From Euryarchaeota archaeon UBA462 (GTDB lineage Archaea; Thermoplasmatota; Poseidoniia; Poseidoniales; Thalassarchaeaceae), in assembly GCA_002506755.1 (NCBI GenBank), contig DAYD01000021.1, positions 29,452 to 93,451 of the forward strand: a DNA stretch of 64,000 bases. The letters run 5' to 3'. The notes under the pieces were generated by a model. The model saw only the letters and a list, made by a program, of their open reading frames with translations, was not told the DNA's origin and did not search any database. The position numbers and the translations under genes are program-made. Of the stretch, positions 2,186-51,800 are shown piece after piece. Numbering within the stretch: position 1 is the stretch's first letter; every line of letters starts with the position of its first letter.

Positions 2186-2207
2186 ACAAATTACACCCTA
2201 TTTCCAC

Positions 2208-17213: not shown

Positions 17214-17235
17214 TCGACCCGAATGAACCCATTGC

Positions 17236-19239: not shown

Positions 19240-19279
19240 GCGGATGTATGTGAAAATAGAACGACCAAGAAGATTGGCC

Positions 19280-24347: not shown

Positions 24348-27806
<3,459 letters not shown>

Positions 27807-29990: not shown

Positions 29991-32900
29991 GTGGATGGGA
30001 TGGAGACTGATATTGAGAGTGCCAAAGAAGGACAGAGATTACCTATTTTTGCAGCCCCAATTGCTATCTCAATCTCGCTTCTTTTACTTCTAATTGCTGT
30101 TTCTTCCCTAGATGGAAGGGAAATTTCTGGAGAATACGTATCTGCAGCAGTTATCATCTCATTATCCGCATTATTGCCTGCATATGCTGGCCGATCCAGC
30201 AATCAAATTCCATTTGGGTCCGGCAATCTGAGAATCATATCTCTCTCCATTGGTCTTCTGATCGTCTCACTGGTCGCAAATTGGATTGATGACTCAAACT
30301 TCAGCAACATGTTTGTCGCTACATTCCTCCTCCTTGGGATAGGTACAGCTATTCTAAATGAATACGGCAGATTGGAGGAGTCCTCTGTGCTTCTATCTAT
30401 TGTGCTTGGAATGAGGCTCGCAGTGATATATGCGTCAGAACTTGGAATCGCCCAATCGACTTCAACCGCATTGGTTGACCTACAAAGGGCTTCAATTGGT
30501 AGCGCATTCTTCTCCTTTTGGTTTGCAGCAATTTCCCTCGGGTTCTTGGTGATGATTTCTATTAGAGGAACGCTCGAATCTCGTGGGAGAGGTACTCTGT
30601 TCTCTGGGATTCCTTACTTCAGTGAGAATAGAGAGGTAGTCGCCTATCCATTTCTTATTTTCGCAGGCTTCTTGATACCACTTCTATGGTTGGGTAATCT
30701 AACCGATCTTACAGAGTATTCTGAGGGTAGACACCTAGGAGTAGTTTGGGCAATTTTCTCAGCACTGATAATCCTAATCTTTTCCTTCTTCAGATCCGAG
30801 GGATGGCACGTTCTAAGCTCTATGTTGGTTGTAAATTGGCTCCTGTACACATTAGGTCACCTTCACGAGATTGGCAACGAGCTTCCATCATTGTTTTCAG
30901 AGGATGGGTTCATCGGAACATTCACATGGTTCTTCCTAGGATTCTGGATGAATTTTTTTGCTATCTTTTTCGCTTCCAGAGGGGCATTTGGGGATATTGC
31001 CCCCAGAAGGGACAACAGCGGATACAGAATTTGGTGGTCCAATAACTCCTATCCCGTCATGATTGCATTTGCATTCTTAATTGCACTAGTTGTAAGGGTG
31101 GCATGGAACGTAATCCCTGCAATGAATGCTTCAGGAACCGGACTATGGGATATGACGGGCGGTTCAGACCCGTGGTACATGAAAAGAGTCGTTGATTTCG
31201 TAATAGCTGAAAGGAGCCATCTAATCTACGATCATGACAGGGCATACCCATCAGGAGGAATTAATCCAAGACCACCTCTTTTCTCATGGTCTTTGGCGTT
31301 AGGTGCTATTTTCATAACATGGCTACTGGAGATGCCGGTTAGTGAATCCGTATGGTGGTCAATGTCGGCCCTACCAGCAGTTTACGGAGCTCTGATCGTC
31401 TTTCCCATCGCTGGAATAGCTAGCAGGGCACACACTAAGAGATCGGGAATCTTTGCGGCATGGCTCATCGCTCTAATGCCGGGTCACATGAGTAGGTCCA
31501 CTTTCGCTATGTCCGACCACGATTCTTTCGCGATGTTGTTTCTTGCAATCGCCTTTTACTTTTGGATCCGTGCTCTCGAACACCTGGAAAACAGGAAGGT
31601 ATTCAATGAAACAAGCACTAATCCGCTATACATCCTTGCGGGCATTAGAGACACTTGGCAGAAAAACCCTGCGTTGATGGCCAACGCGACAATGTCAGGG
31701 ATTGCGTTCTCTGTGATGGCACTAGGTTGGAAGGGGTTCGTTTACGGTCCAGGAATTTTATTCCTAGCCTACTCGTTTCAGGTTGCTATCAACATATTTG
31801 GAAGAAAAGACAGTTTACAATTTACTTCAGCAGCATTGCAAATGATGCTCACATCTATCCTTATCCCCTTTGCATTCTATGCCTGGCCTGGGATGAACCT
31901 GTTGTTTGCCCCAAGCGGAATGCAGCCAATGTTCTACATAATTGGATTTACATTTGCGGTAGGATGGGTTTCAAGCTCGTTTAGGGACAAGCCATGGTTG
32001 CTGGTGGTGATGGGTGGAACAGTGCTCTTTGGTACAATACTCGCGCTTCTTTGGATCCTACAGGAAGCAGAACTCTACAACGGTTGGGACATACTATTCA
32101 CTGGAGGATTCTACTTCTCTAAGAACAAAATATTCGGTACAATTGGAGAGGCTCAGGCCCCAGATAGGGGTGTCCTGTTTGCTTCTTACGGACCTGTCGT
32201 AGCATTAATCGCTATAGGTTGCTCTTTCATTCTACTCTGGAGGGGTAGCAGAAAAAGTAAATCAGGACTCACTCTTTTGGGTCTCTGGACAATAATTGCT
32301 ACTTACATGGCATGGACTGCTGGGAGATTCATCATCAATGCCACTCCACCTATCGCAGTAGCTGGAGGAATCGGAATATCCATGCTATGGGGCAGCGCAA
32401 ATTTTTCCTCTTTCACAAAAGCATGGCGTAATTCCGGAATCGGGACACCCGGAACGCGATTCAGATCACTCTGGCCAGCTACAAAGGCAAGACCTGGAGT
32501 TCCGGCGATGATCATGGTTATCTTGCTCATAAGCTCTCAACATGCAACATACGGAGTGGATTCCGGAATTCCAAGGGGGGAGCAGTCAGCTTACGAAATT
32601 GACGAGACTATTTACGAAATCGCACCAGATATTTTCAGGTACGATTTCTTCAACCTGTTTTCATTACTAAAAAGCAAGCCATACAATCCCCAAGAATCAG
32701 GACTGTGGTATATGGGGACATTCGGCCCCAGTTTCAATTCCCAAGGTTGGAATGAGGCCTACCAATGGTTATCTGAGCAAGATAACGCAACACCATTCAG
32801 TGAACGGCCAGCTTTCGTTTCCTGGTGGGACTATGGGTTCCAAGCACTTTCTTCTGGACAACACCCTACAGTAGCAGACAACTTCCAGTCTGGAATTCCC

Positions 32901-35900
32901 AATAGCGGGGCAATGCTTCTATCCGCGGGTCAAGAAGACACGCTTTCCTTATTCATTGCAACTTTAGCATTAGGTGACAGAAGTGTCAATGGTGGGCAGA
33001 TGAGCGAGGAATTCCGTTCCGTTCTCGATTCACATATGCATGAAGATCAAGTTTCTGAGTTTTCTGCTATAATTTCAAACGGTGATTGCAACCCAAGATG
33101 CAGAGAATTCGTAATGGATAGATCGATGTCAGTTATAGCAGAATACGGGACAACTGAACTACTTCATGGCCATATTCTGGATGATATGGGACTACCTATC
33201 GAAGAAGAATTTTGGTTGGTTTTGAAGGAAGGTGAGCAGTACGGAGAGCCAACCTCCAATGAGTCAGAGGGTCTGTCATTGTTCGATCAAGCTAGAGGTT
33301 CATCTTCCTCCTATGAAATAAAGGATCAGCCTGATCACTATGACTTAGGGGGTTATAGATACACTAAAGATCTCTATGATGACTTCTATGACGTTTCGAC
33401 TGGTTTGCACAGGGCTAATGCGAAGTTTGGAATGATGAGGGCATTCTTGACCTCTGGCTTCCAATTAAATGAGCTTGTCTCCATTTATGATGGAATCACT
33501 TCAATCGACAATTACGTAGTCACAGACTACGATGGGGGGACTACTACTAGGAATCACGAGATTCGGTACTTCGCAGTAGACAACAGATTGTACCCGCTTG
33601 GAGGAAAATACAACGCAGATTATTCCAGCTACCACAGGGGCCAGACAACTGGGATCTTCCACGCACCAACCCACCTATCAGGACTCGATATAGACACTTA
33701 CATCACCACGACATATGAGACGAATCAAGGTATGATGGACTCGCAGGAGTATTCGGATAGATACATGGAGGACATTAGGTCCCAAGCATCTGGAGCCACT
33801 ACAGCAGATGAAATGATAGCAATAAATGATATCGACTATCAGCACAATGAACAATTCTTCGAGACTATGGTCGCAAGGACCTATGTGGGCTATGGGACCT
33901 CAACTTTAGGGCTCGACTCACCCGGTGGCCTATCGGGCCAGGCAGACTCTCCATCCTCGTGGATCGCTCCTTCGGCCCTATCCGGATCCCCTGGTAGCTA
34001 CCTTGAGGGAGCCATGGCATTGCCGGGCGCGATGATGAACCACTTTGTCATCTCTAATTGGTATGATCCAACCGATGGAGCAAGCTGCGAAACTAACGAT
34101 ACTGGGATTAAGATTGACCAATACTGTGGGACTGTTTACGACTCCAACAGATTTGTCAAGATTCTGAAGTACTACAGCGGTGCAACTTTGGAGGGAACAG
34201 TGACCCTTGACGGGATTGGGCCAGTTCCTAATGCGCGGATTTTGATAGAAAGAGATGCATTTAGCGGTGAAGAAGAAGAGGATGAGAATGGCGAAGTAAT
34301 TGATAGAGATTCAAGGACTTTCTGGATACCTATTGGCACCACCCAAGCAGATGATAATGGTGACTTCTCATTTGTAGCCCCATCTGGAAAAATCAGAGTG
34401 ACAGCGTTCACCGGAGAACCAGATTTGGACAGTGGAAGATCCACAATTATGTCTGGAATGGGCTACGCGATGAGTGAGCTCTTCACAGAGGATCCTGAAA
34501 TCAGGAACGTAAATCCAGTCACTGGTATTCTTGGTGATGTCTTTGGTTCGACATGGCTAAAACACACTATCGTTAATGTCTCTGGAGCTGATGGCCACAG
34601 CAACGGCGAACAGGTCATTGATGCATCGATTACAGTAGAACCCTCGATGGCCTCAGGAATACTTACTTGGTCTGGACAGCTAGATTTTGATGGTCAACCT
34701 GTCACATCCGCCGAAGTCGTACTAACACCAGTTTCCAGTGAGGTAAATATAGGACCTTATAGAAGTCAGACTTCCAACGGGTCAGTCACCGGCCAATCTC
34801 TAAGATTCACTGGAGAAGGGGAAGTCACATTTTCAGGAAACGGCTCAGTAATTTCACAAGGAACGGTCTCCGTTAGTGAGTTTACAGGTACCCAGGCGCA
34901 AACAATATTCGACAATCACAGTGTCACGGGAGAAGGTGAATTCTCTGGGAAGGGGACACTAGAAGGTTTCCTTGGTGAAGAAATTCCAGTTTGCACAGAG
35001 GGGGACATTCCCTTAGGAGTTGAAGTATGCCTAGTTAGTGAGGGGTTGTATCTCGTTAACGGTACTGTGAACGCTTCTGGCCGGTTCACTTCGCAAGGAA
35101 TCAGCCAGTACACGAGGTCGCTTGTACAAGCCTCCCTTGTCGGGTCTGGAACTTTCACAACCGATACTTCACTAACGCTTTCAGAATACGGGACTATTAA
35201 TGGTACAGGAACATTCTCCGGAGATGGTGAATTTAGCGGACCAATGGTTAGTGCGGGCTCATTTCACATTGTAGACGCTCTACCTGGGGATTACATAATC
35301 TCGGTTGATTTTGGAGATGGAAATCAAATAGAATTAGGGCAAACTTTCCAGATTCCATTGAATCCATCAGATTCCCAAACGCCCGTGAATATTTTCGGTG
35401 GTGCGATAAAGGGAGAAGTATCCCTTCACTCTGGAGAGCCACTGTCGAGCGAAATTGCAATTCTTCTGTCAAATGAATCATACGATTCCTCAATCGAGGG
35501 TTGTGAAGCGATAGTCCGGCCACCGTGCACAATATTGCCCGAAAATGATGGGTCATTCGAAATAGGCCCAGTCATCCCAGGATCTTACTCTGTACAGGTA
35601 GATGTCGATGATGATGGATTCCCGGAAATATCCGAGAGCTACATTTTCAGATCCGATGAAGACTCGCTCTCCACATTTCCATCGGTTGTCCCGGATACAA
35701 CCGATATCAGCTTCACGGTTAGGGATGGGGGCATTATCGTCGAGAATCTGAGCCTAATCTTCAGATCCGTAAATCAATCGATAGCTGATGTGACTTCAAT
35801 TTATGATGAAGAAACGGGAATTTACAACTCAGAACTAACTCAAGGTGAATGGCTTCTGAATTACACCATCGAAGGTGATAAGCAACTTTGGCAAAGAATC

Positions 35901-38900
35901 ACTATCGGTGCCGAAGATATATCTGGAGCAGATTATGAATTTGTAGAGAGTCAAACGGTGAGTGGCGTAATCTCCGATGGCTCTGGTAAAGACAATCCGG
36001 AATCCCCTCCCGGACTTCCGGTTTCCTACCAGGAAGTGCTTTTCCAGTGGGATGGGTTCTCAATTACCTCGATTACTGATCAAAATGGAAACTTTAGCGT
36101 TAACTTGCCTGTTGGGGCCTGGATAGATCTAACCGTCGAACGCACAGTTGGTGCAGGTGGCTTCCTTTCAAATGGGACCCGATTCCAAGTCAGTGAAGAA
36201 ATGCCTGACATCTCGATAGACCTTAGGCCTGCAATGATGGTTATGGGTGCAGCGAGCCTAAACAGGGAAGGAAATACCTACAATCAAGGATTCCCAGGTT
36301 GGGTCCCTGTTTTTGCCTTAGCAAACAACCTAGATGGATTTACCCAAGCAGTTTGGCGGTCCGAGGTTGATGAGCTTGGAAGGTTCGACGCACTACTCCC
36401 CGTAGGCAACTGGTCCCTGACCCTAGATGCTGGGGAGATGGGATCATCATCTGAAACCATAGAGGTAAACGCTACATCTGACTCCGTCGAGCTACTAATT
36501 TTACCCGAGGACAATAGCACTGTTTCCATCGACTTCTTTATTGATCGACAAGGTGACAATAACCAATCTAATGGAACTCCAGTGCCAAATACCTTCCCGT
36601 TCGAAATAGTTCCTTTGACATCCAACGGACTTGGTGTCACCGTAAATGCTGCTGGATCTGAATGGATATCCGAGGGAACCGCACAAGTTTCACTTGAACC
36701 TGGCAAGTACAGAATAGTCGTTGAAAGGGCAAATTCATCTGCTAGTGAGCTATTCGACACACTCTATGACACAAACAAGGTCTTCGATGTTTATCTGGAA
36801 CCATCGGAGATTACAAGATCAGTCGGTTTCGAACCTCTTTGGCTTGTCAACATAACACTGACAAACCAAAGCAAAGATCCGTTGAGTAATCACGTTGTTA
36901 AGTTGCAGAATTCTGAGAGCGGCTGGATCCAGACCTTTATCACCAACGAGTCCGGTAAGGTCTTAGAATATGTTGAAGAAGGGGATTGGGTACTAATTGT
37001 AGACGAATTTGAAAGCAGCTCTGGAGTCTTTGAGGGCCTAAGGGAATTAATCTCGGTCTCTGAAAATACTGCAGGATCGGTGTATGACTTAGAGACTTCC
37101 CAGTTGGCTAATATCGCTATAAATCTAACATCGGAACCCTCCGGAGTTGACCTCGGAGAAATGGAAGTCACCTTGACCTCACAGGAGGGGCTTGGCTCAT
37201 TCTCAATATCTCACCCGGGATTCGGACAGACTCTAGAGATGAGACTAACACCAGGGCTTTGGAACATAGAGATGAATGAAACAGAGGAAGGGGTCCGACT
37301 TCTTCTAGAAAACACATCTTTGTCCGAGTCTGGCATTACGGTAGGAGAAGTCAATGAGGTCTCCTTAACGGTACAGAGGCTAGCTCAGCTTTCTGGGATT
37401 GTTTTCTGGGACCTCGATGAAAACGACTCTCCCGGTTTCTTTGAAGGTCTATCTAACGCTTCATTAACTATCTCTCCAAACATCCCAGAATTGGAACTAG
37501 ACACATACGAAATATTCTCCGGAGAGAACGGGGCATGGTCAGTTTACCTTCCCGCTCAAACCTCTTGGGACGTCGAGGTCACGAAGGATGGATTCGAAAA
37601 TGTGGAATTAAGCATAGGTCTTGGGTTAGAATCTATGTCTGAAGACATAGAAATAGCAGCGGGAGAGGTAGAAGTCTCAGGAATTGTCTCGTATCCAGAT
37701 AACTCATGTATATCCAACGAGGATTGGGATCTAGTAATGATACCATCTCACGGAATATCTCGAGAACGTGTAACAGCCACCAAGGTATCGGGCCCAAGTG
37801 GATGGACTGGAGAATGGTCAGCATCTGTTCAACCGGGGGATTGGGTGATCTACGCATCGTTAGATACCCAAAATCAAAATTGTCAAGGTCTTGTGTCAAT
37901 CAAATCTATGGAAGTAGGGGTTGATGGGGGTTCGCTGGATTCGGAATTGACAATCGGGGGCATTCTCAACCTCAACACTCGATGGCTGGACTTTGAAGGA
38001 GGGGTGCGTGATCTCTCGGAGGTATCTGACTACGACTTGAAATTTGAGATTGGGGCAACATCATGGTCCGAAACATTAGACGATGATGGTACAATATCCA
38101 TTCTAATAACCCCAAGTACTATTCAGGTATCGAGCGAATTCGAGATTTCAGAAGGCAACAGGAACGTATCTTACTCCGGTGGCCAAGGAATTGCGATAAG
38201 AGCAGGTCAGGACTCACCTCTAAAGACTCTGAATGTTGAGCGAGAGTCTAACCAAGATATCTCTGCAACTACCGTCGGTGAATCGAGGAAAACTGTCAGT
38301 GAAGTTGACCAATCGTGCACAAATGACAGCGATGGGGATGGATACATAGACGGCGAAGACGTATTCCCGGATGACTCCTCAGAGTGGAGAGACTTGGATG
38401 GAGATGGCATTGGTGACAATGAAGACAATGACGATGACAATGATGGTGATCTAGATTCGATTGATGAAGTAAACATCTATGCCGGTGGAGACAATTCTCC
38501 CTCGGGATGCGATTACACCAATGCTGAATTCAGCATAACTGTCACCTATGAGGGGCACAACTCGCTAGACCAGTACTCAGTAGTTGGAACCGTACCCGGT
38601 GCCGATGGTACCCTTTGGGATGTAAAGTTCGAGAATTCTACTTCCTCCGGAGATTGGCTAGACTCTATTACCTTTGAGATGGGCTTGAACAATTCAGACA
38701 TATCGGAGGAACTGAATGTTAGGGTAACACCAGCCAAAGTCGGGGAGGCCCACCACTTCACTGGAGGTCACAGAGTCCTGCTAAAGTTCTCTACCCAGCA
38801 AGGATATACAATGGAGATGGAGCTAATTGTTGATGTCCCTAAGTCACCAGGATTCAGGATGGAAATTACCGACGAGTATGATGAAATCACCTACTTCCCA

Positions 38901-39680
38901 CCTAATGAGCAAACGATATCCATCGAAATCCCCTTCAGGAACTCAGGAAACTCTGACGAGACATTCACATTCGAGTTCGAAGAATCCAACAATTGGGACG
39001 TCGCTGGACCAATGATGCAACCAGTTTCCCCTTTCTCTGACGGTCTTGCTACCTTCACCTTAATTCCAACATTTACAGGCAATCTAGCCTCTGATTATGA
39101 AGAGACGATAGACATCCTAGTGACTGATAGCTCAAATAATTCATACACATTCCAAAATAGACTAAAATTGGACTCCCCTAAGCTATCCGTTGTTGGTGAT
39201 TCTGCTACACTCCTTGGGAATAGGTTCCCAACCTTTGGGGAAATTGAGAGATATTCACTGAACGTATCAAACTCTGGAAACGTGTTAGCAGATGAGGTCA
39301 CGATCACAGCGACGTTGTGTTCAGAAATTACATGCGAAGATGATCAGAGACTCAACATAACCAGTACTGCAACAGGCACTGTCTCTTCTATGGACGAATC
39401 GACATTCTACTTCGATATGGATTTCACACAATTCGATTCGGCACAGAAGTACTACATCGTTTTCGAGATTACAGGTGAGGATTTGAGCGAGAAGGCTCAA
39501 TCTTGCGACAGCTCTAATTCGGTAGGCAAGCCATCATGTGTTATCGAAGCGCAACTATGGACAGGTTCAGAGGAAAATGAGAATCTAAAATATATGGCAT
39601 ACGTATTCATAATCCTGTTGATCTCCGCATTAGTTTACTTCACTAGAAGGCCAGGAAGAAGAGTTAGTGCTCCTTTCTGA
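29991..39680 (+). CDS. aglB: giant (3229 aa) oligosaccharyltransferase AglB/STT3 fusion protein
   Basis: Single 9.7-kb ORF starting at GTG 29991 or ATG 30000. STT3 hallmarks are SDPWYMKR (D393), IYDHDRAYPSGGINPRPPLFS, MSDHDSFAMLF, and WWDYG at aa 945-949 (nt 32823-32837) followed by HPTVADNFQSG. About 350 aa with roughly 10 hydrophobic helices precede the core. More than 2200 aa of beta-sandwich repeats, an Asp cluster and a final TM follow it. Confidence 0.85.
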   Translation: MDGMETDIESAKEGQRLPIFAAPIAISISLLLLLIAVSSLDGREISGEYVSAAVIISLSALLPAYAGRSSNQIPFGSGNLRIISLSIGLLIVSLVANWIDDSNFSNMFVATFLLLGIGTAILNEYGRLEESSVLLSIVLGMRLAVIYASELGIAQSTSTALVDLQRASIGSAFFSFWFAAISLGFLVMISIRGTLESRGRGTLFSGIPYFSENREVVAYPFLIFAGFLIPLLWLGNLTDLTEYSEGRHLGVVWAIFSALIILIFSFFRSEGWHVLSSMLVVNWLLYTLGHLHEIGNELPSLFSEDGFIGTFTWFFLGFWMNFFAIFFASRGAFGDIAPRRDNSGYRIWWSNNSYPVMIAFAFLIALVVRVAWNVIPAMNASGTGLWDMTGGSDPWYMKRVVDFVIAERSHLIYDHDRAYPSGGINPRPPLFSWSLALGAIFITWLLEMPVSESVWWSMSALPAVYGALIVFPIAGIASRAHTKRSGIFAAWLIALMPGHMSRSTFAMSDHDSFAMLFLAIAFYFWIRALEHLENRKVFNETSTNPLYILAGIRDTWQKNPALMANATMSGIAFSVMALGWKGFVYGPGILFLAYSFQVAINIFGRKDSLQFTSAALQMMLTSILIPFAFYAWPGMNLLFAPSGMQPMFYIIGFTFAVGWVSSSFRDKPWLLVVMGGTVLFGTILALLWILQEAELYNGWDILFTGGFYFSKNKIFGTIGEAQAPDRGVLFASYGPVVALIAIGCSFILLWRGSRKSKSGLTLLGLWTIIATYMAWTAGRFIINATPPIAVAGGIGISMLWGSANFSSFTKAWRNSGIGTPGTRFRSLWPATKARPGVPAMIMVILLISSQHATYGVDSGIPRGEQSAYEIDETIYEIAPDIFRYDFFNLFSLLKSKPYNPQESGLWYMGTFGPSFNSQGWNEAYQWLSEQDNATPFSERPAFVSWWDYGFQALSSGQHPTVADNFQSGIPNSGAMLLSAGQEDTLSLFIATLALGDRSVNGGQMSEEFRSVLDSHMHEDQVSEFSAIISNGDCNPRCREFVMDRSMSVIAEYGTTELLHGHILDDMGLPIEEEFWLVLKEGEQYGEPTSNESEGLSLFDQARGSSSSYEIKDQPDHYDLGGYRYTKDLYDDFYDVSTGLHRANAKFGMMRAFLTSGFQLNELVSIYDGITSIDNYVVTDYDGGTTTRNHEIRYFAVDNRLYPLGGKYNADYSSYHRGQTTGIFHAPTHLSGLDIDTYITTTYETNQGMMDSQEYSDRYMEDIRSQASGATTADEMIAINDIDYQHNEQFFETMVARTYVGYGTSTLGLDSPGGLSGQADSPSSWIAPSALSGSPGSYLEGAMALPGAMMNHFVISNWYDPTDGASCETNDTGIKIDQYCGTVYDSNRFVKILKYYSGATLEGTVTLDGIGPVPNARILIERDAFSGEEEEDENGEVIDRDSRTFWIPIGTTQADDNGDFSFVAPSGKIRVTAFTGEPDLDSGRSTIMSGMGYAMSELFTEDPEIRNVNPVTGILGDVFGSTWLKHTIVNVSGADGHSNGEQVIDASITVEPSMASGILTWSGQLDFDGQPVTSAEVVLTPVSSEVNIGPYRSQTSNGSVTGQSLRFTGEGEVTFSGNGSVISQGTVSVSEFTGTQAQTIFDNHSVTGEGEFSGKGTLEGFLGEEIPVCTEGDIPLGVEVCLVSEGLYLVNGTVNASGRFTSQGISQYTRSLVQASLVGSGTFTTDTSLTLSEYGTINGTGTFSGDGEFSGPMVSAGSFHIVDALPGDYIISVDFGDGNQIELGQTFQIPLNPSDSQTPVNIFGGAIKGEVSLHSGEPLSSEIAILLSNESYDSSIEGCEAIVRPPCTILPENDGSFEIGPVIPGSYSVQVDVDDDGFPEISESYIFRSDEDSLSTFPSVVPDTTDISFTVRDGGIIVENLSLIFRSVNQSIADVTSIYDEETGIYNSELTQGEWLLNYTIEGDKQLWQRITIGAEDISGADYEFVESQTVSGVISDGSGKDNPESPPGLPVSYQEVLFQWDGFSITSITDQNGNFSVNLPVGAWIDLTVERTVGAGGFLSNGTRFQVSEEMPDISIDLRPAMMVMGAASLNREGNTYNQGFPGWVPVFALANNLDGFTQAVWRSEVDELGRFDALLPVGNWSLTLDAGEMGSSSETIEVNATSDSVELLILPEDNSTVSIDFFIDRQGDNNQSNGTPVPNTFPFEIVPLTSNGLGVTVNAAGSEWISEGTAQVSLEPGKYRIVVERANSSASELFDTLYDTNKVFDVYLEPSEITRSVGFEPLWLVNITLTNQSKDPLSNHVVKLQNSESGWIQTFITNESGKVLEYVEEGDWVLIVDEFESSSGVFEGLRELISVSENTAGSVYDLETSQLANIAINLTSEPSGVDLGEMEVTLTSQEGLGSFSISHPGFGQTLEMRLTPGLWNIEMNETEEGVRLLLENTSLSESGITVGEVNEVSLTVQRLAQLSGIVFWDLDENDSPGFFEGLSNASLTISPNIPELELDTYEIFSGENGAWSVYLPAQTSWDVEVTKDGFENVELSIGLGLESMSEDIEIAAGEVEVSGIVSYPDNSCISNEDWDLVMIPSHGISRERVTATKVSGPSGWTGEWSASVQPGDWVIYASLDTQNQNCQGLVSIKSMEVGVDGGSLDSELTIGGILNLNTRWLDFEGGVRDLSEVSDYDLKFEIGATSWSETLDDDGTISILITPSTIQVSSEFEISEGNRNVSYSGGQGIAIRAGQDSPLKTLNVERESNQDISATTVGESRKTVSEVDQSCTNDSDGDGYIDGEDVFPDDSSEWRDLDGDGIGDNEDNDDDNDGDLDSIDEVNIYAGGDNSPSGCDYTNAEFSITVTYEGHNSLDQYSVVGTVPGADGTLWDVKFENSTSSGDWLDSITFEMGLNNSDISEELNVRVTPAKVGEAHHFTGGHRVLLKFSTQQGYTMEMELIVDVPKSPGFRMEITDEYDEITYFPPNEQTISIEIPFRNSGNSDETFTFEFEESNNWDVAGPMMQPVSPFSDGLATFTLIPTFTGNLASDYEETIDILVTDSSNNSYTFQNRLKLDSPKLSVVGDSATLLGNRFPTFGEIERYSLNVSNSGNVLADEVTITATLCSEITCEDDQRLNITSTATGTVSSMDESTFYFDMDFTQFDSAQKYYIVFEITGEDLSEKAQSCDSSNSVGKPSCVIEAQLWTGSEENENLKYMAYVFIILLISALVYFTRRPGRRVSAPF
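31050..32990 (+). other. STT3/AglB catalytic core (13-TM region plus WWDYG-containing soluble domain)
   Basis: See the motifs listed for the parent ORF. The core starts at YPVMIAFAFLIALVV (aa 354). Confidence 0.8.
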
Positions 39681-39724: not shown

Positions 39725-40957
39725 ATGAGAGATTTCAATCACCTTGAGTTGATGCCAGAGCCGGAAGATCCTAGTCTGCTAACTGCAGTTGATAGCGATG
39801 CTCCTGGCTACCCTGGAAAGGCATATGGAATCTCGGACCAAGAAGCAAGAGAGCTCAGGTGGCCCGTTGGACCTATTGTGAGGTTCCTTTGGCCTTGGGG
39901 TGCCCTTGGCTTCTCCGCTGTCATTACTGCATTCATACTTTTTTACCCTTCAATCGCCCCTCTATTACAGGAGGTATTGCCCGATTCAGAATGGGCATAT
40001 GAGGATACAGGAATACGTGATCTTCAGTCCTCTGGTACGCTTGGAGAGGGAGTCAAGGTCTGTATTGTCGATACGGGCATAGATTCCAATCATCCCGATT
40101 TATCAAAAATTAACCTAGTGGGATTCAGAGATTTCTACCAAACGGATAATGAAGAAGTAAAGGATATTGGATATGACAGCCATGGTACTCTAATGTCCGG
40201 GCTCCTAGTTGCAGATGGTAACTTCCTTGGAGCAGCCCCAGGGGTATCTCTTTCAGTGGCTATAGGGCTGGGACCAGATGGCAAATCGGCGAATGAAAGA
40301 ATGGTCTCTCAGGCTATTCGATGGTGTAGAATCTCCCAGGATGCGGATATAATTTCCCTTAGCTTGGGGAGTGCACAGGGCTCTGAGATGTCTACCTCCT
40401 CAGAAACGGTAATAGCAGTAAATGAGGCCCTTGAAAATGGCATTTTCGTTGTAGCAGCAGCAGGTAATTTGGACATTGATTCGAATGACTCTGACGTGTC
40501 ATCTCCAGCTAGCTTGTCTGGAGTCATAGCTGTAGGGGCGCACGACAAGAGTGGCGCTCCATGGGCAGACAGCGCATCGGGCTCCGAAATAGACCCTCAC
40601 ACAGGTGAAGCCAGGTCCTTCCCCGATCAGAAACCAGAGATTATTGCCCCTGGCGTATTGCTTTGGTCTTGTTCCTCGCACGACTCAGAACCTCCTTATG
40701 CTTACTCAACTGGAACTAGCGACTCCACAGTAATCGTAACGGGTGCTCTAGCCCTGATTTTATCCATACACGGCGAAGACCTTTCAGGTGATGACGGTAA
40801 AATAAGCCAGGATGGTATGAATTTAGTTAAGGTAGCTCTAGCTAAATCCGCCAAACCTGCTCCCAATCAAGACTCGACGCACAACCCCAAGTCTGGTTAT
40901 GGCCTTCTCGACGCCTCCGAGTGGTCAAAACAACTAGCCGTTGAGTTGGGGACTTAG
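39725..40957 (+). CDS. membrane-anchored subtilisin-like serine protease (peptidase S8)
   Basis: N-terminal TM helix WGALGFSAVITAFILFY. Catalytic Asp in VCIVDTGIDSNHPDL. Catalytic His in DSHGTLMSG. Oxyanion Asn in VVAAAGN. Catalytic Ser in YSTGTSDSTVIVTGALAL. Confidence 0.85.
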   Translation: MRDFNHLELMPEPEDPSLLTAVDSDAPGYPGKAYGISDQEARELRWPVGPIVRFLWPWGALGFSAVITAFILFYPSIAPLLQEVLPDSEWAYEDTGIRDLQSSGTLGEGVKVCIVDTGIDSNHPDLSKINLVGFRDFYQTDNEEVKDIGYDSHGTLMSGLLVADGNFLGAAPGVSLSVAIGLGPDGKSANERMVSQAIRWCRISQDADIISLSLGSAQGSEMSTSSETVIAVNEALENGIFVVAAAGNLDIDSNDSDVSSPASLSGVIAVGAHDKSGAPWADSASGSEIDPHTGEARSFPDQKPEIIAPGVLLWSCSSHDSEPPYAYSTGTSDSTVIVTGALALILSIHGEDLSGDDGKISQDGMNLVKVALAKSAKPAPNQDSTHNPKSGYGLLDASEWSKQLAVELGT

Positions 40958-41046
40958 TCCCGCCAAATAACTTGGTAATACTCGTTGACTTCTATCGGTT
41001 CCATCGATACCCTATGGTTAAATTGGCCTCATGACGCCCAAGGTAT

Positions 41047-44000
41047 ATGGCGGCAGATGGCAAGGCCAGTTCAATTTCATTGACTGGGTTGTTTTTGATG
41101 AGCATTATACTCACAATGGCACTTCCTGCAGGGACTGCAATGGCCTCTAACGAAACATCCCAAGGCACGATAACTGGGACTGAGACTTGGATGGGGATAC
41201 ATCAGGTCTCTGGAGACGTAACAGTAGCGCCAGGCGCTAAACTAATAATAAATCCAGGAGCAACAGTAATTTTCCAGAATGGCACACATTTAGACGTTAG
41301 GGGTAGCCTCTGTGCCGGTGCATTGTCTTGCGGGGCGCCTTCCGACGCAAATCCGGCTATGGAAATTACACTCATCTGGGAGGCCCCGTCAAACGGAAGC
41401 GCCAGAGGTGAGTGCTATGGAATGAGCAATGGCAATCAAGAAATCTTCATCGAGGATCCCTCTTGTAACGAAGGAGTTCTCATGAGAAGCTCAATAGACC
41501 TTTCACAGACACAACTTAGGCATGTTTCATTTCAAGGAGCATGGGGTATGCCGTACTACATCCAAAGTGTAGGGGAGTTTCGCTATGCAGCCTTGGTTCT
41601 AGATGGTGCTAGCCCCACCCTTACCGAGCTATCATTCAGCCAAATAAATACATCCAGCGTCATGACTACGAACCTAGCTCAACCCATATTCAATGGCGGT
41701 GATTTCGCCGTAGGAGTGGGGGAAGATGGCGGGAGAGTCGGATCCGCGCTCCAGATTTATTCATCAGGATCATCTGTCAGCCCATTCCAGATTTCAGATA
41801 TCAGCCTAACGGCAACAAACAATGGTTGCCAACAGAACGCAGGAGGTAGGTCCGCTATCTGGGCGGAAGACTCATTCATTGAGATCGACAATGCCGAAAT
41901 TACGGGAGATTACGGATTATACCTCAGAACTTCAGCAGGAACTGTGTCAAATTCCGTATTGAATGTAAATTGCAATGGAATTGACCTATGGGGGAAGAAG
42001 GCAGTCGGGTCTACATCATTTGGATTTGAGATATCGGACAACGATATCACCACCATTGAAGGCAATGGGGTATATGGGGCCGGATCATCATTGTTCACTT
42101 TAACAAACAACGACATCGAGGGTGCCGCAAGTGCATCTGGTATTGTTGTATACAATAGTGAGGCTCATATCCACAATAACGACATAGGACCAATTAACGG
42201 TTTCTTTGGATTACAACTCGGTGGAACTTATGACGTAATTGCCGAGAACAATACTATTTTTGACACTAGCTTTTCCCCGGTTGCCGCTGGACAGTATTGG
42301 GGAGGGGGCATAAGATCCGCCTCAAGAGTTCTACTAGCCAACAACACCATCTCATACGCCGGTGCCGCTACTTGTTCTAGCGACGTAAATTGGGATGGTC
42401 AATTCCCTTGTCCGGTAATTCATGCCTATGTTACCGGAGTGACAATGTACGACAATACAATAACATCTACAGGTGAAGCTGACGGCATACGAGCAGTAGG
42501 ATCCTTACTCGACATCCAAAGGAATTCATTCGATGTAGCAAAAACCGGGGCAGTTATCAAAAACTACGATAGCGGGTATGCAAACAATGACCAATATGGG
42601 TCATTGGCGTACTTCTCAGAAAATGACTGGAATCAAGTAGAATCAACCTACAACATCACGAAGAGCTCGGTCACATCTCAATCTGAATACATCCCTTCTC
42701 CCCCTACTGGCGAGTTTCCCGTTCGCCTTTCTTGGCCGGATCAAGAGGCATGGCCGGAAAACGGATTCCAAGGAAAAATTATCCCAACTCCTGTGAAGGA
42801 ATGCAGTACCTGCATGAATATGACTCCAAGGAATTTCCCCCTCGGAGTTAGCATGGACAACAATTCAACTGTCTTTACCTTCGCTGATTTAACAAACCTT
42901 GACTTATCCAAAGTTAAAATCGCATCTCAACCAACTCATTTTGCCGTACAGGTAAGTAGAGCCGAGCTAGTCAGGTTTCAGACACTCATTAACGGGGAAA
43001 AGGTCAGTGACGCTTTGGTAATAGTTGAGGACGCACTTGGAAACGATCTCTACAGAATCAACACTGCAGGAGATGGTTTCACACCTTGGGTGGCCCTTCC
43101 ATCAAACTTCCATCTGGATTTCCGAGGTTTGGGGGGCGGAGATAACCCTGATGGATTTGCGGATGATGAGTACGAAGATTCTTGCTCGGATGGAATAGAT
43201 AATGATGGCGACTTGGTAGTTGACACAAATGATCCAAGCTGCGATTACTCTAATGACTCCAGAGAAATGTCACTCTACAGGTACACGGCTTACAAGTTTG
43301 GATACGGATATTTCTCCGGTGAGTTTACGCTTCAGGAAGCATCACTGGAAGAAACCGCGCAATTGGAGAATTCCGGGCCCACGGTTATGGTCACTCAAAA
43401 CGACGGGCATTCTTTCAGAAGGATCGTGAATATAACTGGTAGCGCCCATGACGGACAATTAGCCAACAGCTATCCTTCAGACGAACTTGCACAGTGGGAC
43501 CAAGGCGGATACGTTCACTCGGTTCAGGTGAAAAATCCTTTCACAAGCTCATGGGAGAATGCTGGAGAAGCAATAGACACGAGTGGAGCAAACCAAGGCG
43601 AGGTCACAAGGTTTAATCGTCCATTCAGCTCTTGGTATTACGAAATAGATCTAAGCGCTCTCGCAGGAGAAGGGGACTATACCTTTGAGTTCAGATCTTT
43701 TGACGGCATAGATTACAGTCCTGTAGTATCAAGGACAATCAAACTAAACACTCAACCACCAACATTAGTCGTGAATACGCCGAGTACATTTTCATCACAT
43801 GATGACGGCAAGGTATTCTTCGAAGGTTATGCTCAGGATCCCTATGGATGCCCCAATGAGTGCAACAAAGATATCGGATTAATTCACATTAGGGTAGAAG
43901 GTCCATACGATTCCTACACAACTAAGGTCTCTGCTAGCGAGGATGGTACTTGGAATTACACTTGGGATTTCCCAATCGTACAAGAGATAATGATGTATGA

Positions 44001-45327
44001 ATTTGAGATTTGGGCTTCCGATTCCGATTTTTGTAATGATGAATTGGATGAGTGCCAGTCAGTCACTCTAGCTCTGACAATAGATAATCGGAATAGCCTG
44101 CCCACTGTAAGTGTGAATCAACCAATTACCGGGACTAGGATCTCATCATCATCTGAGGCAATTCTACAAGGGGTTGCAAGGGATTTCGATGGCCAGATTA
44201 CCAGAGTAGATATAGAGATCGAGGACATATCAAATGATTTCGTTATGGTATTCGATACAAGTGTAACCGAGTTCTCCCAGGAAGGCGAATGGGAATTGAA
44301 ACTGGATACAGGCTTCCTTAGCCAACTTCGACATGATGGTGAGTATTTACTTAGGTTCAGGTCGTATGATGGTACGGATTACAGTGGCTGGTCAGAAGTT
44401 ACAATAATTATCGATAACCCGAAGAATGCTGGAAACAACCAACCTACATTCGACTCGTCAGGATGGGCGACAGAGATTACATTGTATTGCGATCTTGAAT
44501 CCAACTCTATTGACAAATGCACCACAGCAGAGATCGACCTTAGACAATATTTTTCTGATTTGGATGGTAATTCGGATATCCAATTTTTCTCCGTCTACAA
44601 TGACACTTCCTTAGACGATGATGATAGATATCCACTCGTTATAGGAATTGGAAGCGATGGTATCGCACGGTATGATCCTGCAGACATGCAATTTTATGAT
44701 GACAATATGGAGGCTTGGAGCTTGCATGACGTCATCTTCATAGCTACGGATTCTTGGGATTCTAGGGCTAATTCAGATCCCGTATCCTTCAGAGTAGTCC
44801 CACTACAATTCTCAATTCAAGAACCTGACAAGTCATGGTTTGATGGCGAAGAAGTAGCAGTATACACTGGAATAGGGTTGCCTGGAAAGCAGGTGTCAGT
44901 ATCAATAGATGGCATACCAGTCGCTACAGCATTGGTATCTGAAAACGGAACTTGGGAATTACAGATACCCGCTTCTAGACTTGATGAAGTCTCATCAACC
45001 CCCGAATTCACCTATGGAGGTCAGACTACAGAAGCCTCTCCGATTTCCAAAGGAGAGCAAACTGGGAGCTCATCAGGATTAATGGTTACACTTGTCATAG
45101 CATTATCTGGATTAGTCGCTCTATTGTCACTGGCTTACTTTGGAGGTTTCATCGGTATTGAGATTGAGGACGAATCGGACTACAGGAAAACCCCGGCACA
45201 AATTCCCGAAGAAAACGGTGCCGAGCCAAGGAGCACACCCAATTTGGAAAAGTACGAAGACCATCCGGGGTGGCTATGGGATAGTGAATCAGAAAAATGG
45301 GTCCCGGATCCTGATTTCACCGAATAA
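41047..45327 (+). CDS. large (1426 aa) surface protein with right-handed parallel beta-helix (NosD/CASH-like) region, Ig-like repeats, C-terminal TM and cytoplasmic tail
   Basis: Signal-like helix LTGLFLMSIILTMALPAGTAMA. Repetitive N-D/G-I turns occur at about nt 41200-42560 (ISDNDITTIEGNGVY, LTNNDIEGAA, IHNNDIGPI, AENNTIFD, LANNTISY, MYDNTITS). One Asp cluster is DGIDNDGDLVVDTNDPSCD. TM helix VTLVIALSGLVALLSLAYFGGFIGI is followed by a tail of about 65 aa ending HPGWLWDSESEKWVPDPDFTE. Confidence 0.65.
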   Translation: MAADGKASSISLTGLFLMSIILTMALPAGTAMASNETSQGTITGTETWMGIHQVSGDVTVAPGAKLIINPGATVIFQNGTHLDVRGSLCAGALSCGAPSDANPAMEITLIWEAPSNGSARGECYGMSNGNQEIFIEDPSCNEGVLMRSSIDLSQTQLRHVSFQGAWGMPYYIQSVGEFRYAALVLDGASPTLTELSFSQINTSSVMTTNLAQPIFNGGDFAVGVGEDGGRVGSALQIYSSGSSVSPFQISDISLTATNNGCQQNAGGRSAIWAEDSFIEIDNAEITGDYGLYLRTSAGTVSNSVLNVNCNGIDLWGKKAVGSTSFGFEISDNDITTIEGNGVYGAGSSLFTLTNNDIEGAASASGIVVYNSEAHIHNNDIGPINGFFGLQLGGTYDVIAENNTIFDTSFSPVAAGQYWGGGIRSASRVLLANNTISYAGAATCSSDVNWDGQFPCPVIHAYVTGVTMYDNTITSTGEADGIRAVGSLLDIQRNSFDVAKTGAVIKNYDSGYANNDQYGSLAYFSENDWNQVESTYNITKSSVTSQSEYIPSPPTGEFPVRLSWPDQEAWPENGFQGKIIPTPVKECSTCMNMTPRNFPLGVSMDNNSTVFTFADLTNLDLSKVKIASQPTHFAVQVSRAELVRFQTLINGEKVSDALVIVEDALGNDLYRINTAGDGFTPWVALPSNFHLDFRGLGGGDNPDGFADDEYEDSCSDGIDNDGDLVVDTNDPSCDYSNDSREMSLYRYTAYKFGYGYFSGEFTLQEASLEETAQLENSGPTVMVTQNDGHSFRRIVNITGSAHDGQLANSYPSDELAQWDQGGYVHSVQVKNPFTSSWENAGEAIDTSGANQGEVTRFNRPFSSWYYEIDLSALAGEGDYTFEFRSFDGIDYSPVVSRTIKLNTQPPTLVVNTPSTFSSHDDGKVFFEGYAQDPYGCPNECNKDIGLIHIRVEGPYDSYTTKVSASEDGTWNYTWDFPIVQEIMMYEFEIWASDSDFCNDELDECQSVTLALTIDNRNSLPTVSVNQPITGTRISSSSEAILQGVARDFDGQITRVDIEIEDISNDFVMVFDTSVTEFSQEGEWELKLDTGFLSQLRHDGEYLLRFRSYDGTDYSGWSEVTIIIDNPKNAGNNQPTFDSSGWATEITLYCDLESNSIDKCTTAEIDLRQYFSDLDGNSDIQFFSVYNDTSLDDDDRYPLVIGIGSDGIARYDPADMQFYDDNMEAWSLHDVIFIATDSWDSRANSDPVSFRVVPLQFSIQEPDKSWFDGEEVAVYTGIGLPGKQVSVSIDGIPVATALVSENGTWELQIPASRLDEVSSTPEFTYGGQTTEASPISKGEQTGSSSGLMVTLVIALSGLVALLSLAYFGGFIGIEIEDESDYRKTPAQIPEENGAEPRSTPNLEKYEDHPGWLWDSESEKWVPDPDFTE

Positions 45328-48888: not shown

Positions 48889-51800
48889 ATGCGTCGCAAA
48901 CAAACAGCATTACTGATATCCCTGTTGATACTCTCTAGTCTGGCATTCATCTCACAAACAAGACCACAGTCACCAGTTTCATCAACTGATCCAAATTTGG
49001 CCGAAGGAACAGAATCGCCTGTTACTGATCAGGATGGCGATTTAATTCCAGACATTTACGAAGTTATTTTTGGAGAGGATTTCACTGTAGAATCAGAAAA
49101 TTACGAGGCATCGATAAAAGGCCTCAATCCATCCGATTCTACGGATAATTCCACCGATAATGACAAAGATGGATTAACCGCTCTCCAAGAATATTGCTGG
49201 CCTTATACTCTCGATAACTGCTTCGAGAACAGAGATGGCTTGACTGGGAAACCACCTGAAGACACTGCATCGGGACTTAGGGAATATCTAGATCCAAGAG
49301 TTTCTGATACAGATGGAGACGGTATTCCCGATGGATATGAGGTGTATATGTGCACCGAGGGTGGACTTTACAAGAGCGACCCAAATGATCCACTAAACCC
49401 GAATAATTTTTGGGAATGCAGATATTTTGACCCACTCGATCCAAGCGACAAAATGGCAGATTTCGATAGGTGCGAAGCAGACTTTAGCTGGGGGTGCGGG
49501 GATGGTTTTGATTTCAATGGCGATGGGTCAATAGATGAAGGGGAATTGTTCACTAACACCGAGGAATATCAGTTTGGAATTCCCGATGATTGGATAACTG
49601 AAAGGGATGGCCTATGGTGTTGGGGGACAATTCAGGGATTGGAGGAAAACTCCTGTCAGACCCTCTATGAGAGGCCCACAGGAGAATCTGGCTGGATGGG
49701 CACTGATCCCCGGTTCAGCGACTCTGATTACTTTTATTGGGATGAAATACAACCCTCACAGTTAGAAATACTGGGGGATGGCATTCCTGACGGGTGGGAA
49801 TCCCACCATGGCCTTGATCCATTAAATGCGAGCGATGCGATACTAGATAGCGACTTAGACGGTTGGGACCAAAATAGGGACGGAATCATTACCCAAGACG
49901 TCACTACTGGCACGTCACAATGGGGGGAGTCGTTCAGTAACTTCGAAGAATATCTTGTTGACTTTGATGATTCTAGTCATGTAACACCGGGACTAAGGGG
50001 CACGAAGCTCTACTCCCAGAGCGAGCAATTGATTTTCGATCATTCTACGGCCGTCAGTTTAGGGGATCCTGCGGTTCACTCAATAGTGCCAGACCAAGCT
50101 AGGGAGAGGCTCTTGGTTGGGACAAAATATGGAATTACGGCCATTGATCCATTTAGAGGCTATACTTCGGATTTTTATTTCTCGCCAGGTATTGAATTAA
50201 ACTCAATGATTTATCACGAAATTGGAGATTCTGATACTTTAGTTGTGGCCACTAATGTTGGGATTCACACGATACCCTTGGAGAACGGACTACCATTAAT
50301 GGAAGCTATGGAAACAAGAGAAATCGGTAGTATTAATGTTATTATGCCACTAAATTCGGAATCATCTCAAATCGACTTTCTATTTATGGGCGGTGAGAAT
50401 GTTTGGAGGTCACGATTAGCTCAAGACACCTCTTTAGAAAATTCCGAGATAACATTCCTCGAAACCCTCTCGTCAATGCTCCATGAGTCAAATGCAACTG
50501 TACTATCTGCAGGTCATGCTACTGTATTGGGAAGGACTCCATTGTTATTGATAGGGACTGATATTGGACTAATTGGGTGGAATACTACTGACGGACAAGA
50601 AGACTCATCAAGACCTTGGTGGATTTTCGATAGGATAACTGCCGAGGATTATGTGACTGAGAATATTCTAGATTCCAGGAAGACCTCTATGGTGAACACA
50701 ATATTCGTCGAGGAAACAAATCAAGGTTCCGATGTTGTTTGGTTGGGAACTGGGGGTGGCTTACATCAAGTAATCATGGACCTAATCATTTCTCAGCCTA
50801 AGGAGTCCTTCAACAATGAAAGGATGCTAAACATGGAAGGTCTAGTTTCTGGTGAAAATGAAATTCACTCCATATTGCCACAAGAGGGTATGATAGTCAT
50901 CGGCTCTCAGAACGGTACTTGGTGCTTGGAGGGAGGCGCGGATGGGATTCTCGGACCAGATAGAAATCAAACAACAATGCCCGGACTCGTCACATCTCTG
51001 GCAAAACTTGAGAGGAACGGAGAGGAGTGGGTTTTCGCTGGTATTTCTCCAGGCCGTTTCATGAATATTGCTCCCATGGACCCCCATTCCCATGACTCTG
51101 ATTTGGATGGGATGCCCGATGGTTGGGAATTTGCTTATGGTTTGGACCCAACAGATCCATTTGACGCTTCAAGAGACGCAGATGATGATGGTGTTTCAAT
51201 TGGTAATTCAGGTGCATTCGGTTTCGATCGTCTTTGGAGTAATCTAGACGAATACAGGTTTTCTGGGTCCTCATTTCTGGGCTTGAATGGAACCGATCCA
51301 AGGGTTTCTGATACTGACGGGGATGGTTTGTCTGATGGAGAGGAATACTGGGGTTGGTTCATAGAACCTTCAAATTTCGATTGTCATTATCTTAACGATG
51401 AATATGTCTGCAGTTCTGAAATTGGTCAATCAGCGGAGGATGTTCACATGGGAGGCTGGCTTGGCAGTGGTTCCAGTGGCGGTTCAGACCGTTCTACAGA
51501 CCCTACAAATCCAGATACTGATGGGGACGGAATGCCCGATGGGTGGGAGATCAAACACAGAAGATGGGTTGGTGATGTATACACTGGTGGAAATGAGTGG
51601 ACTCTAGATCCAAACGACCCAAACGATGCTACGGAAGATGCAGACGGGGATGGACTTTCTAACATATGTGAATACGAATGGGAACGGCTTCGAGAAGACT
51701 CGATTTCGAGTGGTATCAAATCGCATGGGGAATCTCCAAGATACATAGAAAATTGGACAGCTACAGATCCAAACAATAAGGACTCCGATTCGGACTCTTT

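Follow-up and report, generated by a model that had tools for sequence, protein, structure and literature searches.

The giant ORF encodes an STT3/AglB oligosaccharyltransferase

The open reading frame (ORF) at nucleotides (nt) 29991–39680 of a 64,000-nt window of DNA from Euryarchaeota archaeon UBA462 (assembly GCA_002506755.1, contig DAYD01000021.1, positions 29,452–93,451) encodes an exceptionally large member of the STT3/AglB family of oligosaccharyltransferases (OSTs). We propose that this giant is the functional AglB of Candidatus Poseidoniales (Marine Group II, MGII), enlarged within a single polypeptide by three lineage-specific additions: an N-terminal ten-helix module (N-module), a string of extracellular β-sandwiches (the ectodomain) and a C-terminal membrane anchor. 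From the sequence comparisons and predicted structures described below, we put the probability of this reading at roughly 0.6. An initial annotation of the same DNA, made by a model from the letters and their ORFs, had described an OST embedded in an adhesin-like giant. The coordinates of all features are collected in Table 1, in ORF numbering from the GTG at 29991.

Judged by profile, predicted fold and motifs, the giant is a genuine STT3/AglB OST. The Pfam STT3 profile (PF02516) matched amino acids (aa) 391–713 with 39.9 bits, well above its gathering cut-off of 24.5, and the NCBIfam profile TIGR04154 matched aa 357–983 (E = 6e-43, 147.2 bits), without reaching its subfamily cut-off of 450 bits. 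The giant alone, as a single sequence, matched eukaryotic STT3A in HMMER (E = 5e-7), and a profile of 40 family members matched the A. fulgidus AglB (3WAJ) with E = 1.2e-11. An AlphaFold model of aa 4–1203 had a predicted local distance difference test score (pLDDT) of 72.5 and a predicted template modelling score (pTM) of 0.68. When this model was compared with the PDB in Foldseek, the best match was 3WAK (E = 3.1e-9), followed by 7E9S, 5GMY, human STT3A, yeast Stt3 and PglB; the OST matches had a probability of 1.00 throughout and target-normalised TM-scores of 0.39–0.51, with E-values from 3e-9 to 1e-6 for 3WAK, 7E9S, human STT3A and yeast Stt3. The extracellular core domain that follows the membrane domain was aligned by HMMER with the AglB C-terminal domains 3VGP and 3VU0 and with the WWDYG..VDN region of STT3A, and it also gave a weak Pfam AglB_core-like match at aa 940–982.

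The initial annotation had placed the STT3 motifs D-P-W-Y, D-H-D, WWDYG and the block H-P-T-V-A-D-N in one frame, and all of them were found there. Invariance was judged in 40 homologues whose first 1,200 residues show 38–84% identity. The acidic residues D387 and D393 of the first external loop (W-D-M-T-G-G-S-D-P-W-Y-M) are invariant, and the region was aligned to SYDNEGIA of STT3A. The D-H-D at aa 509–511 is likewise invariant, as are the T and E of TIGE, which we assign to the TIXE/SVSE motif of external loop 5 from its position in a disordered inter-helix loop of the model. WWDYG, aligned to the WWDYG of STT3A, is invariant as well. So is D-N-F-Q-x-G-I-P, at the position aligned to the VDN of STT3A, where Lys at +3 is absent; this block may be a variant of the DK/DM/MI motif, by which the Ser/Thr at sequon position +2 is recognised. 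Residues 300–1000 form the best conserved stretch of the giant (62–81% identity to the query), and the divergence of the core is comparable to that of PurD across the same genome pairs. At the sequence level, the invariant motifs and the highly conserved core mark the giant as a working enzyme rather than a relic. By analogy with other AglBs, the core would transfer a dolichol-phosphate-linked glycan to the Asn of N-X-S/T on the outer face of the cytoplasmic membrane.

A single gene of nearly constant length

An open frame of ~3,200 codons at 46% GC is, by inference, far beyond chance. The GC content is even along the gene (45–47%), giving no compositional sign of a join, and the family alignment shows the frame to be conserved as protein over its entire length. 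The ATG at nt 30000 (codon 4) encodes a Met shared by all aligned family members, and most homologues begin there; this is therefore probably the true start, yielding a protein of 3,226 aa. The helix tally comes to ~24 transmembrane (TM) helices, in agreement with the initial annotation: ten in aa 1–330 and ~13 in aa 344–859, both from AlphaFold, and one at aa 3197–3220 from hydropathy.

Among 5.8 billion proteins, 465 relatives were detected, of which the best 120 clusters are all 2,944–3,338 aa long and align over their full length with identities down to 44%. When one genome per GTDB species was scanned, relatives were identified in at least 178 species representatives. Among the best 80 of these 178 species, every informatively named one belongs to Poseidoniales, mostly to Thalassarchaeaceae/MGIIb, while the others carry generic labels (Methanobacteriota, Thermoplasmatota or Euryarchaeota archaeon). 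The more divergent members, 38–44% identical in their first 1,200 aa, are ~3,150–3,190 aa long, and the named ones are again Poseidoniales. The core encoded in the window is 97% identical to that of the single-cell genome AG-422-I22.

We considered the possibility that the giant was an artefact of assembly or gene calling, either a chimeric join or a read-through of separate genes. One related contig could be taken to favor this: in locus L081 (ena:ERZ10645735 contig_16102, 10001–19557) the gene is split into three ORFs of 848, 168 and 2,136 aa. However, the genes upstream in L081 are likewise broken into overlapping short ORFs, as is typical of frameshift errors, and because the neighbouring genes are also fragmented, the split looks like a frameshift error in a long-read assembly. 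(Split copies of this kind give rise to database records with misleading names, for example [quoted passage not shown].) Furthermore, 11 of 12 loci that we checked contain uninterrupted stop-to-stop frames of 3,161–3,325 codons, while the twelfth runs off its contig. Four of these loci are from single-cell genomes and two from long-read metagenome-assembled genomes (MAGs), one of the latter on a 1.6-Mb contig, and intact ORFs of 3,160–3,325 aa are found in many independent assemblies. The chance that the giant is an artefact is thus negligible. Two findings that the initial annotation had named beforehand as fatal to its claim, a chimeric join and orthologous loci with the parts as separate genes, did not materialise: apart from the frameshifted contig, every orthologous locus examined contains a single gene. 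In every member examined, the aligned sequences show the N-module, core, ectodomain and C-terminal TM helix to be collinear and conserved in length.

The N-terminal ten-helix module

The initial annotation had counted ~350 additional N-terminal residues with about ten hydrophobic helices, and the AlphaFold model of the N-module (pLDDT 85.5, pTM 0.83) indeed shows ten long helices within aa 1–330. The module is closed by a conserved cytoplasmic linker, SRGxFGDIAPRR (aa 329–341). Arg-rich loops (aa 69–77, 125–127, 192–214, 270–272 and 330–355) alternate with acidic, K/R-poor loops (aa 100–105, 150–158, 236–250 and 294–306). According to the positive-inside rule, we infer an N-in topology with ten TM helices and both ends in the cytoplasm, leading into the cytoplasmic start of STT3 TM1. 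Conservation increases toward the C-terminal third, which includes FFRxEGWHV, HxxEIGNELP and the linker, and the most conserved residues (E270, W272 and E293-I-G-N) are located at helix ends and in loops.

A profile of the N-module yielded 56 matches among 1.84 billion (1.84e9) representative sequences. The near-full-length matches are giants of ~3,150–3,230 aa and the remainder are shorter pieces; those pieces whose clusters were examined come from short contigs or from a frameshifted contig. No homologue outside the giants was found among these representatives, and a stand-alone gene for the N-module was rejected on this search. Foldseek detected no fold relative in the PDB (best E = 1.2, TM-score ≤0.29), no Pfam family was consistent over 20 members, and the whole-protein NCBIfam scan gave no match in aa 1–345. 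Comparison of one half with the other by hhalign did not support a 5+5 internal repeat (probability 0.3%), nor did the module appear to be a duplicate of the STT3 helices (0.4%). An exosortase/archaeosortase or CPBP protease was rejected as well, since there is no invariant Cys among the conserved columns and no NCBIfam or Pfam match. By predicted structure and profile searches, the N-module is thus a folded, family-restricted orphan domain.

The initial annotation had suggested that this module might handle the lipid carrier or act as a flippase. In that case, it would be a flippase for the lipid-linked oligosaccharide (LLO), or a dolichol-phosphate handling unit, that feeds the active site directly. 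This is compatible with a polytopic ten-helix domain that is joined directly to the following STT3 TM1 by a cytoplasmic linker of high conservation and with the presence of a CDP-archaeol synthase two genes upstream of the giant; moreover, we know of no firmly identified archaeal LLO flippase. However, the Foldseek search found no likeness to any transporter, scramblase, MurJ/Wzx or ABC domain, the module has neither an inverted nor a direct internal repeat, and its conserved residues outline no obvious polar pathway. An essential, general function would not be expected to be confined to the giant family. Identity with a known flippase or transporter was therefore rejected, having neither fold match, profile match nor internal repeat in its favor, and we consider a flippase or carrier-handling role quite improbable. 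More plausibly, the ten extra helices would lie against the 13-helix STT3 domain through putative contacts and serve as an accessory subunit that stays permanently in the membrane with it.

The ectodomain is a fixed string of β-sandwiches

More than 2,200 residues beyond the STT3 core had been noted initially, with CarboxypepD_reg-like sandwiches and, at the very end, a TM helix followed by a basic tail, and this description held. CarboxypepD_reg (PF13620) scored 48.5 bits against the whole protein (cut-off 32.3), and scans of the protein in chunks gave matches of up to 47.4 bits near aa 1400, 1850, 2010–2050 and 2288–2337. The hallmark motif (P)GxW/YxΦxΦ occurs nine times, at a spacing of 88–102 aa with one gap of 187 aa, compared to 0.86 ± 0.92 occurrences in shuffled sequences. 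No Pfam match was obtained in the chunk scan for the Gly-rich region, in which GxGxF(S/T)G motifs recur (examples are TGEGEVTFSGNG, TGEGEFSGKG and GTGTFSGDGEFSG); in the family alignment, its columns for Gly and Phe, along with two Cys, are near-invariant. The CARDB-like segments of the initial annotation could be recovered only as weak DUF11/DUF7507 matches in the C-terminal part (E = 0.003–0.02).

The TSP3-like Asp cluster that had been described at nt 38330–38460 is present, at nt 38325–38450, although in just five of 31 aligned members; the others carry 9–22 residues at this position. The NCBIfam thrombospondin-type match of the cluster was sub-threshold (E = 0.0027), and the Ca_tandemer and TSP3-type matches in the NCBIfam scan of the giant fell below their cut-offs. 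From the alignment, the cluster is a clade-specific insertion and not a conserved part of the family.

The ectodomain is acidic (D+E 16%, K+R 4%) and contains 35 N-X-S/T sequons where 19 would be expected; because of this excess, it probably carries N-glycans of its own. The search for internal repeats gave five weak matches (probabilities of 80–93%), and each 100-residue block can be aligned across the family with 32–68% identity; the boundary region at aa 1300–1400 is somewhat more gapped. Since, in addition, the total length hardly varies, staying at about 3,150–3,340 aa even at 44% identity, the ectodomain is, at the level of sequence, a fixed architecture of diverged β-sandwiches, unlike the stalks of adhesins, which vary in copy number. 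A tandem-repeat adhesin (TSP3, Ca-tandemer or Big) was accordingly rejected on the weak repeats, the narrow length range and the restricted distribution of the Asp cluster, and the “adhesin-like” label of the initial annotation was not borne out.

A stronger version of the adhesin idea would make the giant an adhesin in which a degenerate, catalytically dead STT3 serves as membrane anchor. The β-sandwich arrays, the Asp-rich cluster and the DUF11-like domains do recall surface adhesins, and giant surface proteins abound in MGII genomes, with two more found in the window. Such an anchor would hardly retain invariant catalytic motifs in the best conserved part of the protein, however, and the fixed length and weak repeats differ from those of repeat adhesins. 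Moreover, a TM helix anchors the distal end in the membrane. We regard a dead-enzyme adhesin as very improbable.

That C-terminal helix is followed by a short cytoplasmic tail with the pattern ...(T/S)R..GRR..(S/G)APF-COOH at the extreme C-terminus (nt 39642–39677). All 31 aligned homologues end in ...RRxxAPF, the last three residues A-P-F being invariant. Among 820 ORFs of ≥150 aa in the window and 83 related loci, no protein other than the giants has an APF terminus, and a sorting signal shared with further ORFs in these 84 sequences was therefore rejected. A PGF-CTERM signal was rejected too, as there is no PGF ahead of the TM helix and the tail reads T-R-R-P-G-R-R-V-S-A-P-F. With this anchor and the STT3 domain at its two ends, the ectodomain is, by hydropathy and model, tethered to the membrane at both; it would leave the membrane past STT3 TM13 and come back at the C-terminal helix.

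Table 1. Features of the giant AglB and of the two genes that follow it. Nucleotide positions are those of the window.
Feature	Residues (aa)	Position (nt)	Strand	Evidence or remark
Whole giant AglB gene		29991–39680	+	Stop-free ORF, 3,229 codons from GTG
N-module, family-specific ten-helix bundle	1–345	29991–31025	+	AlphaFold, profile searches
STT3/AglB membrane domain, ~13 TM helices	~344–859	31020–32567	+	Pfam STT3, family profile, Foldseek
GGSDPWYMKR	390–399 (SDPWYM 392–397)	31164–31181 (SDPWYM)	+
YDHDRAYPSG	413–422		+	Motif search of ORF
Second D-H-D	509–511	31515–31523	+
TIGE	717–720	32139–32150	+
Extracellular AglB core domain	~860–1350	32568–34040	+	HMMER alignments, weak Pfam AglB_core-like match, motif invariance
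WWDYG	945–949	32823–32837	+	In extracellular core domain
HPTVADNFQSGIP	958–970		+	Includes invariant D-N-F-Q-x-G-I-P block, aa 963–970
Ectodomain scaffold, ~1,850 residues	1351–3195	34041–39575	+	Pfam chunk matches, hallmark motifs
First CarboxypepD_reg-like sandwich	~1395–1470		+	Pfam chunk scan
Gly-rich GxGxF(S/T)G region	~1560–1760	34600–35270	+	Conserved in family
~10 prealbumin-like β-sandwiches of ~95 aa each	~1700–2660		+
TSP3-like Asp-rich cluster	2779–2820	38325–38450	+	Present in 5/31 aligned members
DUF11-like Ig domains	Near C-terminus of ectodomain		+	Weak Pfam
C-terminal TM anchor and cytoplasmic tail TRRPGRRVSAPF	~3197–3220 (anchor)	39579–39677	+	Hydropathy scan
Membrane-anchored S8 subtilase		39725–40957	+	Pfam Peptidase_S8, E = 1.4e-39; 44 nt downstream of giant
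β-helix surface protein, 1,426 aa		41047–45327	+	Pfam Beta_helix; N-terminal signal-like segment, C-terminal TM

Gene neighbourhood

The giant lies in a conserved block with the order CDP-archaeol synthase (CarS), PurD, giant AglB, S8 subtilase, β-helix protein and AAA/TPR (MalT-like) protein. Long-read MAGs and single-cell genomes keep it from CarS to the β-helix protein, and the most divergent members keep all of it. The S8 subtilase, which has a hydrophobic segment near aa 55–75, comes next after the giant in 56/56 loci that extend far enough, and PurD stands directly ahead of it in 65/65 loci. Because PurD is equally constant, adjacency by itself says little about function. The β-helix protein is conserved after the subtilase, with a length of 1,415–1,426 aa across loci. 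The subtilase and this type-I membrane protein may form an envelope-biogenesis block (nt 39725–45327), and the giant may share the same unit.

The proximity of a protease raises the possibility that the giant is a polyprotein. Cleavage, for example by the S8 subtilase, would then yield an AglB of normal size and a C-terminally anchored surface glycoprotein, possibly the surface layer itself, and the fusion would merely secure co-expression and co-insertion. Consistent with this, the subtilase gene is an invariable neighbour, the ectodomain is rich in sequons, as a surface glycoprotein would be, its own TM helix would keep it on the cell after cleavage, and the boundary at aa 1300–1400 is somewhat more gapped. 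However, neither a conserved motif for cleavage nor a linker could be identified, and the entire block from CarS to AAA/TPR is equally syntenic, so that the position of the subtilase is not specific. Furthermore, no orthologous locus with separate parts was seen, the frameshifted contig aside. We consider a polyprotein unlikely, though credible enough to be kept in mind.

Several other ORFs in the window are noted here in their own right, since giant surface proteins are unusually frequent in it. A second giant ORF (3,019 aa; nt 7683–16742, +) has a transglutaminase core at aa 948–1065, together with CarboxypepD_reg/Big_1 sandwiches, bacterial-type TSP3 repeats and DUF4129, and contains 75 N-X-S/T sequons where 29 would be expected; BLASTP of the AglB ectodomain against it gave nothing significant, just Asp-rich low-complexity matches. 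Two further large secreted or membrane proteins comprise 1,901 aa with TSP3 repeats (nt 48889–54594, +) and 983 aa with weak Ig-like matches and a C-terminal TM helix (nt 4735–7686, +). On the opposite strand, a 681-aa ORF (nt 25761–27806, −) matches FSH1-type serine hydrolases; a signal-like segment at its N-terminus and a TM helix at its C-terminus mark it as an extracellular hydrolase anchored in the membrane. The gene keeps its position in 50 related loci but evolves fast in sequence, with identities of 34–62% where those of PurD are 58–72%. A 969-aa ORF (nt 19280–22189, −) has a PPDK_N domain (PEP-utilising, ATP-binding), a weak response-regulator receiver match and DUF5752.

A model for the giant AglB

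In the reading that we prefer, an AglB with its additions in place, the ectodomain would be a glycosylated, beads-on-a-string arch or rod of fixed size, anchored at both ends. Rather than an adhesin, it would be a structural element of the cell envelope, one that sets the position or spacing of the enzyme with respect to its substrates and to the surface layer.

Several observations weigh against this model or soften it. The joint model of aa 4–1203 has a pTM of 0.68, and its catalytic loops are of low confidence. With D-N-F-Q where the Lys of the DK motif would usually be found, acceptor recognition may differ from that of other AglBs. The synteny of the subtilase with the giant is no stronger than that of the functionally unrelated PurD. 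On the supporting side, aglB (gene 305) of an MGIIb MAG was reported to be transcribed in situ and up-regulated when the genus was active, with a log2 fold change of 2.05, and gene 307, two genes past it, was up-regulated as well (PMC9723583), but this aglB was not verified as a giant.

Marine Group II is among the most abundant archaea of the surface ocean. An order of such abundant, uncultured organisms thus keeps an AglB about three times larger than usual, with an orphan membrane domain and a fixed scaffold. The N-module and the invariant ...APF tail provide exclusive sequence markers for the group, while current database names, “hypothetical protein” or, for fragments, “carboxypeptidase regulatory-like domain-containing protein”, are misleading. 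If the additions are built-in accessory or envelope components, the giant would represent an elaboration of the OST that arose independently outside eukaryotes, and it would offer a first molecular entry point to the surface of Marine Group II cells.

The initial annotation had held that such an enzyme would be new. We found no description of a ~3,200-aa AglB in MGII/Poseidoniales in the searchable full-text literature, and the supplements of Rinke et al. contain no STT3 or aglB entry. The giants themselves, however, are already in public databases, some under the name STT3 or dolichyl-phosphooligosaccharide-protein glycotransferase. What is new is thus the description and its interpretation, and not the sequences.

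Comparison with known oligosaccharyltransferases

In archaea and bacteria, AglB/STT3 normally stands alone, with 750–1,050 residues. To our knowledge, it is the one universal enzyme of N-glycosylation, and accessory subunits surround it in eukaryotes only. The PDB chains of STT3, AglB and PglB that were matched by our core model have 639–867 residues. Characterised archaeal AglBs range from 754 to 1,054 aa with 13–15 TM helices (PMC5131992), in line with the upper size of about 1,000 aa given in the initial annotation.

The giant has the same STT3/GT-C fold as the A. fulgidus AglB-L (3WAJ, 3WAK, 5GMY, 7E9S) and the AglBs of Methanococcus, Haloferax and Sulfolobus. It shares with the characterised enzymes the acidic residue of the first loop, DxD/DxH, TIXE and WWDYG, and the succession of ~13 TM helices and an extracellular globular domain. 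It differs from them in its size (~3,226 aa and ~24 TM helices), with the N-module, ~1,850 aa of sandwiches and the C-terminal membrane anchor added, and in the D-N-F-Q at the DK/MI position; the identity to the A. fulgidus enzyme is ~16% over the structural alignment. Among the NCBIfam families, its best match is archaeo_STT3 (TIGR04154), the archaeosortase-A-associated AglB subfamily. The score of 147 bits, however, stands against the 450 required, and the giant ends in ...RRxxAPF without a PGF-CTERM. Its membership in STT3/AglB is established, whereas the accretions are without known counterpart.

An architectural likeness to the ectodomain is seen in NOMO, a subunit of the BOS complex (9C7V), in which a string of prealbumin/CarboxypepD_reg-like sandwiches also ends in a single C-terminal TM helix. 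The family profile gave a weak match to NOMO2 over about one domain (E = 0.0022), and one homologue had a faint NOMO1-like match in Pfam. NOMO, however, is a separate protein of the eukaryotic endoplasmic reticulum, of ~1,200 aa and not fused to an enzyme, and no shared ancestry is implied.

In the eukaryotic OST complex, STT3 is accompanied by Ost1/ribophorin I, Swp1/ribophorin II, Wbp1/OST48, Ost2/DAD1, Ost3/6, Ost4 and Ost5, so that extra TM helices and β-sandwiches surround the catalytic subunit as they do in the giant. The yeast complex has 28 TM helices, compared to ~24 here. In the giant, unlike the complex, all of these elements belong to one polypeptide, and the resemblance is architectural only: neither the Foldseek searches with the N-module and core nor the PDB searches with the family profile matched any OST accessory subunit in the extra parts. 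The likeness might go further, if the giant were a single-chain equivalent of the multi-subunit OST that is wired into the envelope. The N-module and the C-terminal helix would then act as built-in accessory subunits that shape the interface with the lipid-linked glycan or the translocon, and the glycosylated, doubly anchored arch would be a major structural component of the Poseidoniales surface, a spacer or canopy. We think this unlikely, but if true, protein glycosylation and envelope construction would be physically coupled in one molecule.

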